From a virus (taxonomy: Duplodnaviria > Heunggongvirae > Uroviricota > Caudoviricetes): a stretch of 19,757 nt of DNA. This document shows, piece after piece, positions 8,542-12,240 of this stretch. Below the pieces are notes generated by a model. It was not told where the DNA came from and did no database searches. It saw only the letters and a list, made by a program, of their open reading frames with translations. The stretch spans positions 1 through 19,757 of the IMG/VR virus record IMGVR_UViG_2734482784_000002; one strand, given 5' to 3'. The first letter of the stretch is position 1. Each line of letters starts with the position of its first letter. Position numbers and translations under genes: made by a program.

Positions 8542-9035
8542 TGCTGACCCCACAAACAGATTTCACGCTCAATCTCACGACGAGTCATGAGACCTTTCCA
8601 TTGCTTACCGCCAGCATATGTCCAGCGACGTAGCTGATCACATGCGCCTTTGATATCGCCCTGGTTTATTTTGCGAAGAAGCGTCGATGTTCTGAAATTG
8701 CCAGCACCCACGTTGTAAACGAATGAGTAAAGAGCGCCGCGCGTTGTTTCCGGTATATCGACTTTGATGTACGGGTTAATTTGTCTGGCGACAGTGGCAA
8801 GGTCTTTATTCAAGAGTGCATTGCATTCTGCTTTGGTATACGTTTTACCGAGCATGATGTCTTTTCCTGTATGCCCGTGACATACAGTCCATACACCAAC
8901 AATATCTTTGTATGGTATGTAGCTGACACCTTCCAGACCATCGTTACCACTTGGGCCAGTGATTAACACCGATGCTATAGCAATTGCTCCGCCACCAATA
9001 GCAGCAGCAACGGCTTTTCGTAATGATGGAGGCAT
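8538..9035 (-). CDS. SAR endolysin (phage 21 R-type lysozyme)
   Basis: 165-aa protein with an N-terminal signal-anchor-release segment ([18 protein letters not shown]) and a lysozyme catalytic region; matches the recalled P21 endolysin. Its start overlaps the holin stop (TAATG). Confidence 0.85.
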
Positions 9036-9250
9036 TATTCACCTCTCGCAGCCTTGCGCTTATCTTCTTTAATCTTGAAATAAAGGTTTGTCAGGTACGT
9101 CAGCAGGCCAAAAACCAGACTACCCAGCACACCGATTGCAGCCCACTGTGACGGAGTTACTCTATCGAGCAACTGTAAAAACCAGTAGCCAGCACTGCCT
9201 GCGGAGGTGCCATAGGCGACACCCGTTGTTAACTTATCCATGGATTTCAT
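9035..9250 (-). CDS. Pinholin, S21-type, with dual-start motif
   Basis: 71 aa [71 protein letters not shown] with two TM segments and Met1/Met4 (antiholin/holin) starts. The track ORF 9035..9394 is an upstream over-extension. Confidence 0.85.
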
Positions 9251-9520
9251 AACCCCCACCTCGCAGATGCGGGCCTGTGTAATGGAAACAAAAAATGGCC
9301 ACCAGCGGCCCGTAAAAAACACCCCGTCAAAAGCACCGGCATCCGCAGATGCCCTTTGCGTGGCGTTATTTGATGCGCGCCAGATGTGGCGCAAAGAAAT
9401 GAAATAAGACTTATCGAAAATTAAGGTTAATTTGATGATTTAAACCACTTCTGAAGCTTAGTAGTATGAACATGTCCCCAGAAGGGGGCCAATACTTATG
9501 AGTCTTCATGGACTTTGTCC

Positions 9521-9553
9521 CGCGGCGTTAATCCGACGGCCGCGCTTTTTTTT
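9521..9553 (+). terminator. Plus-orientation intrinsic terminator
   Basis: cgcggc (9521..9526) pairs with gccgcg (9539..9544), followed by c and eight T (9546..9553). Confidence 0.4.
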
Positions 9554-9588
9554 GCGCCATATTCATCGCTAACTTACATGGCATTGCC

Positions 9589-9623
9589 ACACGGGCATTA
9601 TCAGTGTCCGTGTTTCTTTTTTT
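9589..9623 (+). terminator. Plus-orientation intrinsic terminator
   Basis: Stem acacgg (9589..9594) pairs with ccgtgt (9608..9613), extendable with wobble pairs, followed by ttcttttttt (9614..9623). Confidence 0.45.
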
Positions 9624-9635
9624 AGGGTTCAGAAT

Positions 9636-9660
9636 AAAAAAAACCGCCCGGTGGAGGCGG
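9636..9660 (-). terminator. Minus-orientation intrinsic terminator between tRNA cluster and lysis genes (tR'-like)
   Basis: Minus-strand RNA CCGCC-UCCACCG-GGCGG followed by eight U (plus-strand a-run 9636..9643, stem 9644..9660). Confidence 0.55.
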
Positions 9661-9936
9661 TAAAGGATGTATTTCCAGGTTTTGCTTAGTATATGATTAA
9701 TCTCAATGTCATTTTTAGCGATGTTTACAACATCGGGATGGCACATCACCGGCCCTGCAAGGAAATACAAAATCTCCACCGATAATGCACCATTCTGCTG
9801 CCGTAAAAAAATCAGCACTGAGGCTACACCTGGCCTCAAATCATAGCCAGAGAACAGAATGCTTTTTCGAAACAACCTGCTCCCACGTAATAAAAATACG
9901 CCAGTGCTGCAATACAATAAGGCTTATTTCAAATGC

Positions 9937-10011
<75 letters not shown>

Positions 10012-10014
10012 ATA

Positions 10015-10090
<76 letters not shown>

Positions 10091-10095
10091 ACAGA

Positions 10096-10169
10096 ACCGC
10101 CACCGAGGTATCGAACCTCACACCTACCACTTAAATGATGGTCGGCTCTTCCCGATGAGCAGATGGCGG
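10096..10169 (-). ncRNA. tRNA-like element with non-canonical anticodon arm (possible pseudo-tRNA or atypical tRNA)
   Basis: Reverse complement CCGCCATCTGCTCATCGGGAAGAGCCGACCATCATTTAAGTGGTAGGTGTGAGGTTCGATACCTCGGTGGCGGT has acceptor, D-arm and T-arm (TTCGATA loop) pairings. The best anticodon arm (ACCAT/GTGGT, loop CATTTAA) puts A at position 33, needs an extra nucleotide, and no CCA is encoded. Confidence 0.35.
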
Positions 10170-10237
10170 TGTTCCCTTAATGGGATAGCTGTATTCAGTA
10201 ATCCGTTATTCGAATACACCATCGAAGGAACAAGCGC

Positions 10238-10262
10238 ATTATATACATTCACGATTCGTGTT
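10238..10262 (-). promoter_or_regulatory. Candidate minus-strand promoter (-10 TATAAT) with an abutting palindromic operator-like site
   Basis: Plus-strand attata at 10238..10243 is TATAAT on the minus strand. Palindrome TTCACGA-T-TCGTGTT at 10248..10262 lies 4 nt upstream of it. Positioned between the Q stop and the tRNA cluster, pointing at the tRNAs and lysis genes. Confidence 0.4.
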
Positions 10263-10302
10263 ATTAGCTAATTGCGCACAACACAGCTTCATTTAACGAA
10301 AT

Positions 10303-10340
10303 GCCCCCCAGAAACAACAAAACCCGCTCAATGGCGGGTT
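10303..10340 (-). terminator. Minus-orientation terminator ~85 nt downstream of the Q-like gene
   Basis: Minus-strand RNA ACCCGC-CAUUGA-GCGGGU (10322..10339) followed by UUUUGUUGUUU. Confidence 0.45.
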
Positions 10341-10423
10341 CTGGTAAAGTTCATGCGCTTGGTTCGCCTCGCGATACAGCTTTGCGAAGCATACCGGAAT
10401 TGAAGCAATTTATGCGTAAAAAA

Positions 10424-10966
10424 TCAAGCTATTTTTTGAGCAAATGATTCTCGCATGGGAATATACAGGGCATATTCAGCAACGGCTAACCAATTAGCAA
10501 TTCGCTTTTCGCATGTGCTAAAACACCACTCTGGGTGTGCATCATTTAGCAATTCAGCCATTTTGCGTTTGGTCATCCCCCGCCCCTCATACCGTTGCCG
10601 AAGGACGCTAATCAATCCTGGATGCTCTGCCAGCACCTCACTTATGACCCGATCAATACATAACGCCTCTGCATCAGTACAATGCGCCAGCCAGCTCTTT
10701 TGCTTACCGTTAATCATATCCCGCAAAAAAGCCTCAAGTTCAGACTTGTTCAGGCCTGCTTTTTTCATCCTCCGGAGCGCCTCGTTAATTGCCGTTTTTG
10801 TCAGCTTTTTAGAGCCCAACAACTGGTTGAACATATTCCCCGTCTTACCGCCGCCAATATACGACCAGCGCCCCCACATGCGCAGTTTTCCCTGAATCCA
10901 GACACTTTCCAGCGTGGTGAGACGAAGGTGTTCCCCGCTTTTACCTGTATTTGTTGGGTAAATCAT
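10424..10966 (-). CDS. Late-gene antiterminator Q-like protein
   Basis: 180-aa ORF in the canonical Q position between the nin-region gene and the tRNA/lysis block. Contains a Cys cluster (CTDAEALC...CFSTC) and its start overlaps the upstream stop by 4 nt. Call is by position and general resemblance, not exact recall. Confidence 0.55.
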   Translation of the reverse strand: MIYPTNTGKSGEHLRLTTLESVWIQGKLRMWGRWSYIGGGKTGNMFNQLLGSKKLTKTAINEALRRMKKAGLNKSELEAFLRDMINGKQKSWLAHCTDAEALCIDRVISEVLAEHPGLISVLRQRYEGRGMTKRKMAELLNDAHPEWCFSTCEKRIANWLAVAEYALYIPMRESFAQKIA

Positions 10967-11250
10967 AAATGACCTTTCTTTCTCCAGATTTCTTGTGTGC
11001 GAAAACCCCCTTCAGCATGCATCAGGCGCAATTCTTCTTTGGTGTAATCGCTGGTTTTTACCCGCCCGTCGATTAGATCGTGGCATGAGCTACAGGCTAT
11101 CGCCGCCTGCATATCGTGTGGTTTTGTCGCTGTTCCGCACGTCCCCGCCAGCCTGTAATGCGCCAGCACAGAGGTTTCGGGATTGTGATTGCAGTAGCCA
11201 GGGATTCTGATCTGGCACATCTGGCCTTTAGCCGCTTTACGTAAGTCCAC
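10963..11250 (-). CDS. YbcO-like nin-region protein (DUF1364, putative metal-binding nuclease)
   Basis: DLRKAAKGQMCQIRIPGYCNHNPETSVLAHYRLAGTCGTATKPHDMQAAIACSSCHD... resembles DLP12 YbcO as recalled. The track start at 11283 is TTG; GTG at 11250 gives an N-terminus (M)DLRKAAKG closer to the family. Either start overlaps the Cro-like ORF. Confidence 0.6.
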   Translation of the reverse strand: MDLRKAAKGQMCQIRIPGYCNHNPETSVLAHYRLAGTCGTATKPHDMQAAIACSSCHDLIDGRVKTSDYTKEELRLMHAEGGFRTQEIWRKKGHL

Positions 11251-11422
11251 AATGAGCGCCAAGCCGATTAAGGGTGGAAACAATTTTTCTGCACTCCTCT
11301 AGCCCAGGGGTACGAAAGTTTGCTTCGTAATTTGCTAGTCGGCTTTGTATCCACCCTAACTGAACAGCGAGTTGTCTTTGAGACAGGCCAAGCTGTTTTC
11401 GATATGTTGAAATTTTGTTCAT
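11237..11422 (-). CDS. Cro-like small HTH (XRE-family) regulator
   Basis: 61 aa with a helix-turn-helix (LGLSQRQLAVQLGWIQSRLANYE). ATG at 11422 with GGAGG 7 nt upstream. Divergent from the repressor-like gene across a 96-bp palindrome-rich spacer; occupies the ydaS position of Rac. Confidence 0.6.
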   Translation of the reverse strand: MNKISTYRKQLGLSQRQLAVQLGWIQSRLANYEANFRTPGLEECRKIVSTLNRLGAHCGLT

Positions 11423-11446
11423 TGAAAACCTCCGACGACAATTTTA

Positions 11447-11461
11447 AACACATCCTGTGTT
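11447..11461. promoter_or_regulatory. Operator-like palindrome AACACA-TCC-TGTGTT
   Basis: Perfect 6-3-6 inverted repeat in the divergent intergenic region. It lies between a TTGACC -35-like hexamer (minus strand, complement of 11466..11471) and a TTTAAA -10-like element reading toward the Cro-like gene. Confidence 0.45.
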
Positions 11462-11492
11462 ATGCGGTCAAGCTGTTTTGTGTTTTATGTGA

Positions 11493-11507
11493 ATCACGAT
11501 TCGTGAT
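11493..11507. promoter_or_regulatory. Operator-like palindrome ATCACGA-T-TCGTGAT
   Basis: Perfect 7-1-7 inverted repeat 12 nt upstream of the repressor-like gene ATG. Same core as the sites at 10248 and 12023. Confidence 0.5.
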
Positions 11508-11518
11508 ACAAGGATGCA

Positions 11519-11941
11519 ATGGAAAAAGAAAACGAAAAAATTGCCGCTAGTAGGCTCAATGACAAAATTGCAATGCGTCTTAAAGAGCGCAGGCAGAAGC
11601 TTGGTTTATCGCAAGGAAAACTTGCTGAAATCTGCGGATGGACGCAATCGCGTATAGGTAACTATGAGGCGGGCAGCAGAAATGTTGGAGTGCATGATGC
11701 TGTCGTACTGGGAAAGGCACTGGGCATATCTCCTCCTGAACTCCTGTTTGGAGAAAAAGACTCTTCTGAATTGTGGTTAAATGAATCCCAACGAAAACTT
11801 CTAGAGTTGTTTAACCAGCTACCGGGCTCAGAACAACAACGAATGATTGAGCTATTTGAAGTTCGGCTAAAAGAAATCGACGAGTATGTAGAAAAATATT
11901 TGAGAGGCAGGCTTAAAGATCCCCCCCCACCGGAGCAATGA
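11519..11941 (+). CDS. Immunity repressor-like HTH protein (RacR position), no peptidase domain evident
   Basis: 140 aa with an N-terminal XRE-type HTH (LGLSQGKLAEICGWTQSRIGNYE) and a ~65-aa C-terminal tail with no Ser/Lys autocleavage motif that I can see. AAGGA Shine-Dalgarno; strong terminator follows. Confidence 0.65.
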   Translation: MEKENEKIAASRLNDKIAMRLKERRQKLGLSQGKLAEICGWTQSRIGNYEAGSRNVGVHDAVVLGKALGISPPELLFGEKDSSELWLNESQRKLLELFNQLPGSEQQRMIELFEVRLKEIDEYVEKYLRGRLKDPPPPEQ

Positions 11942-11968
11942 TCTTGCTATCACAGTAATATGCCTATC

Positions 11969-11992
11969 AGCCCGCTATCAGCGGGCTTTTTT
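11969..11992 (+). terminator. Intrinsic terminator after the repressor-like gene
   Basis: Perfect 8-bp stem agcccgct/agcgggct with a 3-nt loop (11969..11987), followed by six T. Confidence 0.7.
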
Positions 11993-12022
11993 GTATCATC
12001 ATCATATGACACCTCACCACAA

Positions 12023-12065
12023 AACACAATTCGTGTTGACACGGAAAATCATTTTGTGTTTAATA
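12023..12065 (+). promoter_or_regulatory. Candidate promoter (-35 TTGACA, 17-bp spacer, -10 TTTAAT) with overlapping operator-like site
   Basis: Near-palindrome AACACAA-T-TCGTGTT at 12023..12037 overlaps TTGACA (12036..12041); TTTAAT at 12059..12064. Lies ~180 nt upstream of the ydaG-like gene. Confidence 0.45.
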
Positions 12066-12240
12066 AACATATCCAAACAACGCCCCACCAGAGAACGGCA
12101 GGACAATACCTCGAGTTATCCAGCCACTGAACAGGGCTAAGTAGCCAGCCTGAGGCATACGAACATGACGGCAGTTGTTGATTGATACAAAGCGCAGTAG
12201 ATAAAACGTTCCGCCACCCAGCGTTAAGGGGAGAGATAAG

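Follow-up and report, generated by a model that had tools for sequence, protein, structure and literature searches.

In phage lambda, cI and Cro act at the OR and OL regions, with divergent repressor and cro genes and operators of 17 bp. Lambdoid prophages also have a cargo ("moron") site past Q and its terminator, where Stx and LT-II prophages, for example, carry tRNA or toxin genes. In CP-933P, the cI-like PaaR2 and the Cro-like YdaS bind operators at OR and OL (PMC8630535), where the repeats were established by footprinting and reporters and YdaS represses the repressor promoter first (PMC8630535, PMC9986795). That switch also has a CII-like protein, YdaT (PMC8630535, PMC9986795).

The DNA analysed here, a stretch of 19,757 nt referred to below as the window, is an E. 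coli Rac-type lambdoid prophage. We consider it likely that it carries the OR and OL operators of a Rac-type prophage with an uncharacterised repressor specificity, and that the resemblance of a further site at 10248-10262, within a mobile tRNA cassette, is incidental.

Organization of the immunity region

The following genes and terminators frame the region:

10318..10343, minus strand: intrinsic terminator directly downstream of Q (terminator scan)
10424..10966, minus strand: antiterminator Q-like gene (DUF1133/Phage_antitermQ; Pfam and PHROG)
11237..11422, minus strand: truncated Cro/YdaS-like HTH gene, 61 aa (Pfam HTH_3, E=3e-10)
11519..11941, plus strand: HTH_3 repressor gene, 140 aa, in the racR position (Pfam HTH_3, E=5.5e-13)
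11969..11987, plus strand: intrinsic terminator 3' of the repressor gene (terminator scan; kept in relatives)

Pfam and PHROG searches identified Q, YbcO, YdaF and SieB among the neighbours and placed the HTH_3 repressor gene divergent to the Cro-like gene, their start codons being 96 bp apart. The Rac gene layout is common to the window and its annotated relatives. The 140-aa protein matches PHROG transcriptional regulator/repressor families, and its HTH is similar to those of the 434, lambda and P22 repressors; HTH families were its sole matches in the Pfam search, Peptidase_S24 being absent. The 61-aa Cro/YdaS-like gene is cut off by a deletion junction at 11240-11244, and ydaT is deleted in the window; a relative without the deletion, IMG/VR contig 648276645_000003, has the YdaS-like protein in full length (∼80 aa). 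An 886-aa open reading frame, considered as a primase that would make the element a satellite, proved to be recE in a normal Rac layout, and that idea was rejected. The immunity type of the window was present in 153 of 5426 E. coli genomes (∼3% of complete genomes).

The terminator at 10318..10343 is conserved along with Q in the relatives, the DNA past it being swapped, and it probably acts as a tR'-like terminator on the late leader transcript.

Predicted operators and promoters at OR and OL

The initial annotation had listed four related palindromes, and all four were confirmed by reading the sequence: AACACATCCTGTGTT at 11447-11461, ATCACGATTCGTGAT at 11493-11507, AACACAATTCGTGTT at 12023-12037 and the intergenic TTCACGATTCGTGTT at 10248-10262. 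The first three share the pattern A(A/T)CAC-N5-GTG(T/A)T and make up an operator set like that of lambda; two degenerate sites absent from that list, OR-b and OL2, can be added to it. Together with the promoters, the predicted elements are as follows:

11443..11471, minus strand: PR-like promoter reading into the Cro/YdaS-like gene, TTGACC (11471-11466), 17-nt spacer, TTTAAA (11448-11443), read from the sequence
11447..11461, no strand: operator OR-a, AACAC-ATCCT-GTGTT, within the minus-strand PR, over its spacer and -10
11470..11484, no strand: degenerate middle operator OR-b, AAGCT-GTTTT-GTGTT, the right arm alone matching
11493..11507, no strand: operator OR-c, ATCAC-GATTC-GTGAT, a perfect 7-1-7 palindrome with invariant arms
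12023..12037, no strand: operator OL1, AACAC-AATTC-GTGTT, overlapping the PL -35
12036..12064, plus strand: PL-like promoter reading into ydaG, ydaF and further genes, TTGACA (12036-12041), 17-nt spacer, TTTAAT (12059-12064)
12046..12060, no strand: operator OL2, AAATC-ATTTT-GTGTT (AAAAC-N5-GTGTT in relatives), overlapping the PL -10

The three OR centres (11454 for OR-a, 11477 for OR-b and 11500 for OR-c) follow each other in 23-bp steps, and the same distance separates the centres of OL1 (12030) and OL2 (12053). OR-c lies immediately 5' of the ribosome-binding site and ATG of the repressor gene. The attribution of the gene downstream of PL as ydaG-like, made in the initial annotation, was correct.

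Phylogenetic footprinting over unique natural variants, 35 for OR and 29 for OL, showed that the operator arms never vary, while their centres and flanks do. Thus, OR-a combined invariant arms with a variable centre, and all five centre positions varied in OL1 between arms that did not. At OR-b, the block TTTTGTGTTTT (11476-11486) was invariant in the 35 variants. Conservation extended to the promoters, with a nearly invariant -35 in PR, an invariant -10 hexamer in PL and a nearly invariant -35 hexamer in the latter. A strict consensus promoter scan called neither PR, nor PL, nor the 10238 site.

Exact matches to AWCAC-N5-GTGWT numbered three in the window, all within the immunity region, and outside it none was found in 825 kb of DNA from prophages with the same immunity. 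The 11-mer CACGATTCGTG, with up to two mismatches allowed, was not enriched in the window (6 matches versus 4.6 expected).

In the main group, the OR-c centre reads GATTC or GAATC; in a subgroup with an 85%-identical repressor it reads GCATC, between the same arms. Since this centre is more conserved than those of the other operators, it may matter for some binding protein. A division into two operator classes, with CACGATTCG as a separate recognition sequence, was also considered and was weakened by the GCATC centre, which occurs with unchanged arms in the subgroup with the 85%-identical repressor.

The repeats found at the equivalent OR and OL positions of four other Rac immunity types are different ones (TTAGGC..GCCTAA, TACCCATGGGTA, AGTACA and TTGAGTTTTCTCAA). 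With five repeat families in five immunity types at the same places, each type has an operator sequence of its own. The PL layout is common to other types, as in the TTGACA...TATAGT of the K-12 RacR type. Because the arms are invariant around variable centres, and because other immunity types have different repeats at the same places, the sequence comparison supports a single operator family that would mark both the switch between the divergent HTH genes and the early-left promoter, in the standard lambdoid OR/OL design.

Binding of protein to these sites, whose anatomy and conservation were observed directly, we infer by analogy with CP-933P. The 140-aa HTH repressor would recognise the 15-bp operators through their A(A/T)CAC arms, with five non-specific bases between them, and the Cro/YdaS-like protein probably recognises the same operators. 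As in lambda and CP-933P, repressor bound at OR-a over PR and at OL1 and OL2 over the PL -35 and -10 would silence both early operons, and occupancy of OR-c would turn down the repressor gene.

The operator look-alike at 10248-10262

The fourth palindrome lies past the terminator downstream of Q, among these features:

10095..10312, minus strand: exchangeable 218-bp cassette, with a tRNA-like remnant (∼10097-10170) and its upstream region
10238..10243, minus strand: TATAAT hexamer standing alone, 4 nt 3' of the look-alike on that strand
10248..10262, no strand: TTCAC-GATTC-GTGTT, an operator look-alike within the tRNA cassette, agreeing with the operator arms at 9 of 10 positions

Its right arm is a perfect GTGTT, and in the other arm a T replaces the outer A, a base that never varies in OR-a, OR-c and OL1, the operators that are full palindromes. 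When one mismatch was allowed, AWCAC-N5-GTGWT gave six matches in the window versus 2.2 expected, a number reached in 2 of 200 shuffles; the one-mismatch matches are those at 10248, 5233 and 9600, the latter two where long open reading frames run. Arms of the quality seen at 10248 arise about twice per 20 kb by chance. The site also has in common with OR-c the exact 12-mer TCACGATTCGTG (10249-10260 and 11494-11505), for which the analytically computed expectation was 0.0023 occurrences, or 0.069 if every 12-mer of the four operators is counted. The site abuts a further perfect palindrome, ATTAGCTAAT (10263-10272).

A promoter-like element had been claimed at each palindrome. PR and PL bear this out when the sequence is read, whereas at 10238-10243 there is a lone minus-strand TATAAT, the best -35 candidates matching TTGACA at 2 to 3 of 6 positions; the promoter scan called nothing at 10238-10270. 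No partner site was found at the 23-bp spacing of OR and OL. Nor is this position the late promoter, as it is downstream of the post-Q terminator. Likewise, its candidacy as a Q-binding element or as the late promoter PR' was rejected, since it lies beyond the terminator (10343-10318) in a segment swapped among phages whose Q proteins are 94 to 99% identical.

Occurrence of the tRNA cassette across immunity types

The cassette is inserted directly past the terminator downstream of Q, with its boundary at CAGAAACAA (10309-10317), and at least nine other cassettes are found in its place at this junction. It was found in 40 of 5426 E. coli genomes, in copies 96 to 100% identical. Its remnant is similar to the "tRNA-OTHER" of Yersinia phage YeP1; neither ARAGORN nor Rfam called a tRNA at 10097-10170. 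The upstream part showed no homology to any phage immunity region and had no other relative in phage records. LT-II prophage records were among the search matches.

Five immunity types were found with this cassette. Besides that of the window, they were the RacR type (PK8568, SZQ1, LCP30S3_I3 and ETEC1730), the TACCC type (2017-03-3CC), the AGTACA type (ATCC 8739 and L131) and a fifth type (13P484A and STS73-1-E). Of the 40 genomes with the cassette, at least 6, among them EcPNK006 and FDAARGOS_1268, had the immunity type of the window, versus ∼3.8 expected from a base rate of 9.5%; the cassette may thus be mildly enriched with this type, in what is a partial cross-tabulation of pairings read from individually fetched genomes. 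Among IMG/VR loci of the same immunity that reach the junction, it was present in 1 of ∼28 and absent from ∼27. Among 80 Q loci, 3 had the cassette, and all 7 with the immunity of the window were without it. The 10248 site is therefore not co-inherited with its cognate immunity region. Given its occurrence with five immunity types, nothing ties the site to the repressor of the window, and free recombination of the cassette among at least five types indicates that the site is not a selected part of the repressor regulon.

The initial annotation had suggested one protein for the divergent HTH switch, the early-left promoter and a promoter feeding the tRNA/lysis block. A shared operator family at the first two is supported by the footprint and by the immunity-type repeats, but control of the third is not, in view of the exchangeable cassette, the mismatch at the outer A and the lone -10. 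Repressor control of the tRNA/late region is thus unsupported, because the cassette is exchangeable, most same-immunity prophages are devoid of it and the TATAAT has no usable -35.

The 12-mer identity with OR-c and the near-complete arms would nevertheless fit a working extra operator, bound by the repressor or the Cro-like protein wherever this cassette and this immunity type combine, so that a tRNA-cassette promoter is shut, read-through into the lysis genes is blocked or the DNA is looped to OR. The site lies upstream of a perfect TATAAT, the genuine OL2 and OR-b also deviate from the arm consensus, and regulators of the Rac family have secondary sites, such as that of YdaT at rcsA (PMC11879457). 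We regard such a function as unlikely, however, since the cassette combines freely with different immunity types and is missing from most prophages of this type, and the site combines a solitary position, an altered outer A and the lack of a -35 with a quality of match that chance provides. If true, it would tie phage-borne tRNA expression or lysis-gene read-through to the lysogenic switch, through wiring that arose by modular recombination and not by co-evolution.

A history of descent could also account for the 12-mer, which, taken as a single k-mer, matches better than chance would give. The upstream region of the cassette would have gained an operator-like stretch in a phage of the window's immunity type, spread by recombination and become a neutral passenger. 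The left arm of the look-alike resembles OR-c and its right arm OL1, and the cassette is highly mobile and nearly identical wherever found. Such a relic seems improbable, as the similarity is limited to ∼12 to 15 bp and no relatives of the upstream part turned up in phage records. Very improbable, finally, is a palindrome of the cassette's own, serving a host factor or an immunity-unrelated regulator of the tRNA genes: it is retained in every copy whatever the immunity type, next to ATTAGCTAAT, but conservation among near-identical copies is uninformative, and we know of no E. coli regulator motif that matches it.

Significance and comparison with known systems

The OR/OL part of the finding is real but ordinary, and the understanding of lambdoid regulation is unchanged by it. 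It defines, for one uncharacterised immunity type, an operator code, A(A/T)CAC-N5-GTG(T/A)T with 23-bp spacing, and a promoter layout, from which the annotation of Rac-like prophages and immunity typing benefit, given the share of complete E. coli genomes that carry this type. The incidental look-alike, for its part, illustrates that a striking sequence coincidence can come from mosaic recombination without a functional link.

As at the lambdoid moron site, tRNA genes or alternative cargo come right after the post-Q terminator and cassettes are swapped at a fixed junction; the window differs in having no toxin gene and in a cassette that carries an operator look-alike. The immunity region resembles lambda OR/OL in its divergent repressor and cro-like genes, its three OR operators ∼23 bp apart and the related operators that overlap the -35 and -10 of a second early promoter beyond the repressor gene. 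In contrast to lambda, the operators are 15 bp long with 5-bp arms instead of 17 bp, OL shows just two sites, the middle operator of OR retains a single arm, and the 140-aa repressor has no detectable Peptidase_S24 self-cleavage domain.

CP-933P has the same gene order, with ydaS and ydaT opposite a small HTH repressor, but its repeat consensus is GTTTAGTAA and its repressor heads a toxin-antitoxin operon, whereas in the window ydaT is deleted and ydaS truncated. The RacR/YdaS system of K-12 Rac (PMC5700373, PMC11879457) belongs to the same prophage family, with ydaG, ydaF, sieB, kilR, recET and int on one side and Q, ybcO and tRNAs on the other; its repressor sequence is different and its operators are TTAGGC-N3-GCCTAA, which makes the two separate immunity specificities.

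Organization of the prophage

Judging from similarity searches and annotated relatives, the window is an E. coli lambdoid prophage of the Rac type, with the following features.

1 to 9900, minus strand: long open reading frames; in annotated relatives the matching place is taken up by late genes, those for lysis included
9937 to 10011, minus strand: tRNA-Gly
10015 to 10090, minus strand: tRNA-Thr
10343 to 10318, minus strand: intrinsic terminator
10424 to 10966, minus strand: Q-like antiterminator (DUF1133 / Phage_antitermQ)
10963 to 11283, minus strand: ybcO
11237 to 11422, minus strand: 61-aa HTH gene
11519 to 11941, plus strand: 140-aa HTH_3 gene
11969 to 11987, plus strand: terminator
Beyond 11987: ydaG, ydaF and sieB
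Past sieB: open reading frames placed as recE, recT and int in annotated relatives

An assignment of the 886-aa open reading frame as a primase was rejected, the frame being recE.

IMG/VR contig 648276645_000003 showed 99.9% identity to the window but contained 7,077 bp that are absent from it. The deletion junction lies at 11240 to 11244, where a truncated ydaS-like gene is fused to ybcO, whose first codons are lost; in undeleted relatives, the missing stretch holds ydaT, replication genes and most nin genes. A similarity search found this junction in none of the complete E. coli genomes. After the deletion, the early minus-strand promoter PR lies about 0.5 kb upstream of Q.

Operators and promoters of the immunity region

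All four palindromes described in the initial annotation were present, at 10248 to 10262, 11447 to 11461 (OR-a), 11493 to 11507 (OR-c) and 12023 to 12037 (OL1); OR-b (11470 to 11486) and OL2 (12046 to 12060) were absent from its list. The operators between the divergent HTH genes are centred at 11454, 11477 and 11500, and those at the early plus-strand promoter PL at 12030 and 12053, with a spacing of 23 bp throughout. PR reads TTGACC-17-TTTAAA (minus strand, 11471 to 11443) and PL TTGACA-17-TTTAAT (12036 to 12064); neither was reported by a strict consensus promoter scan. The motif AWCAC-N5-GTGWT had three exact matches within the window, all inside the immunity region, and six when one mismatch was allowed (2.2 expected; six reached in 2 of 200 shuffles).

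The control regions of 80 IMG/VR loci encoding the same repressor (64 at 97 to 99% identity and 16 at 85 to 86%) were profiled. Across 35 unique OR variants, OR-a always kept its AACAC/GTGTT arms and OR-c its ATCAC/GTGAT arms, and the centre of OR-a varied. For its part, OL1 showed invariant arms and variation at all five centre positions in 29 unique OL variants. OL2, lying over the -10 of PL, reads AAATC-ATTTT-GTGTT in the window and AAAAC-N5-GTGTT in relatives, and OR-b is a degenerate middle site that retains the right arm only and is marked by the invariant block TTTTGTGTTTT (11476 to 11486). The variant profiles also showed an invariant PL -10 hexamer and nearly invariant -35 hexamers in both promoters.

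The OR-c centre was fixed within each repressor subgroup, being GATTC/GAATC in 64 loci and GCATC in the 16 of the 85% subgroup; since the arms were unchanged by this replacement, the arms are the conserved feature. In these same loci, OR-a and OL1 show free variation at the centre. OR-c is under some extra constraint, for example from the promoter or leader of the repressor gene or from the Cro-like protein recognizing the site. In four further Rac immunity types, the corresponding OR and OL positions carried wholly different repeats, namely, TTAGGC..GCCTAA (with RacR), TACCCATGGGTA, AGTACA and TTGAGTTTTCTCAA. Outside the immunity region, the exact-arm motif did not occur in the 825 kb of DNA from same-immunity prophages. 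From these comparisons we infer that the immunity-region sites are real, protein-bound operators of classical lambdoid design. The invariant arms in the OR and OL variants bear out the proposal that a single DNA-binding specificity marks the switch as well as the early-left promoter, an arrangement found, to our knowledge, in every lambdoid phage.

The leader between PL and ydaG (about 12070 to 12240) was conserved across different immunity types (loci L002, L173 and L174 compared) and includes a minus-strand terminator-like hairpin at 12105 to 12081. This leader may be an RNA element, nut-like or of another type.

The cassette carrying the fourth palindrome

The palindrome at 10248 lies inside a 218-bp segment (10095 to 10312) that starts at CAGAAACAA (10309 to 10317), immediately past the U-tract of the post-Q terminator. 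CAGAAACAA marks a fixed site of recombination: among loci sharing the terminator, it is followed by no fewer than nine cassettes unrelated to one another, and in phage vB_EcoS-683R6 the Q side is conserved and the DNA beyond is replaced. Some alternative cassettes contain other tRNA-like sequences, and others resemble coding sequence. Within the segment, 10097 to 10170 (minus strand) shows 79% identity to a 'tRNA-OTHER' feature of Yersinia phages YeP1 and YeP3 and contains the T-arm-like GGTTCGATACC; ARAGORN and Rfam called no tRNA there, and the relative EcPNK006 lacks about 25 nt of this region. A perfect 10-bp palindrome, ATTAGCTAAT (10263 to 10272), directly adjoins the fourth site and is followed by TGCGCA (10274 to 10279).

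Among 5426 complete E. coli genomes, 40 had the segment and 153 had the window's immunity type. The cassette occurred with five immunity types.

Immunity types found with the cassette
K-12 RacR type: PK8568, SZQ1, LCP30S3_I3, ETEC1730
TACCCATGGGTA type: 2017-03-3CC
AGTACA type: ATCC 8739; IMG/VR L131
TTGAGTTTTCTCAA type: 13P484A, STS73-1-E
Window's type: EcPNK006, FDAARGOS_1268, H9, three Z142 isolates; IMG/VR L004

Of the 40 genomes carrying the cassette, at least six had the window's immunity type, against about 3.8 expected from its base rate among Rac-type prophages (about 9.5%, 153/1612); because several of the six are clonal, this is no convincing enrichment. Only one of about 28 same-immunity IMG/VR loci reaching the junction carried the cassette, as did three of 80 Q-gene loci and none of the seven among these with the window's immunity.

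Reading of the fourth palindrome

Chance or a recombinational relic adequately explains the look-alike. It is one of three one-mismatch matches to AWCAC-N5-GTGWT in the window, its arm being TTCAC against the invariant outer A of the full-palindrome operators OR-a, OR-c and OL1, and it has no partner site 23 bp away. For the adjacent minus-strand TATAAT (10243 to 10238), -35 matches reached 3/6 at best and a promoter scan called nothing. The site does share the exact 12-mer TCACGATTCGTG with 11494 to 11505 (0.0023 expected for this 12-mer, 0.069 if every 12-mer of the four operators is considered), so in this combination of cassette and immunity it may still be bound by the repressor or the Cro-like protein. 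A functional link to the repressor is nevertheless improbable. Repressor control beside the tRNA and lysis genes, the part of the initial proposal that would have been unusual, finds no support in the comparative data, in which the look-alike travels with the mobile cassette and not with the repressor. A late promoter or Q-binding element at 10248 was rejected, since the cassette is located beyond the post-Q terminator and phages whose Q is 94 to 99% identical exchange it; the putative late promoter would lie in the 80 bp of conserved DNA that separate the terminator from the Q stop codon.

Comparison with known systems

Experiments on the related prophage CP-933P showed that its cI-like and Cro-like proteins bind operators (PMC8630535). 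The K-12 type has TTGACA...TATAGT at the position corresponding to PL, and the 23-bp operator spacing is the same as in lambda. The operator code of the window's immunity type appears to be undescribed, the published work found covering the K-12 RacR and CP-933P types, and it is a lambdoid system of a well-known kind.
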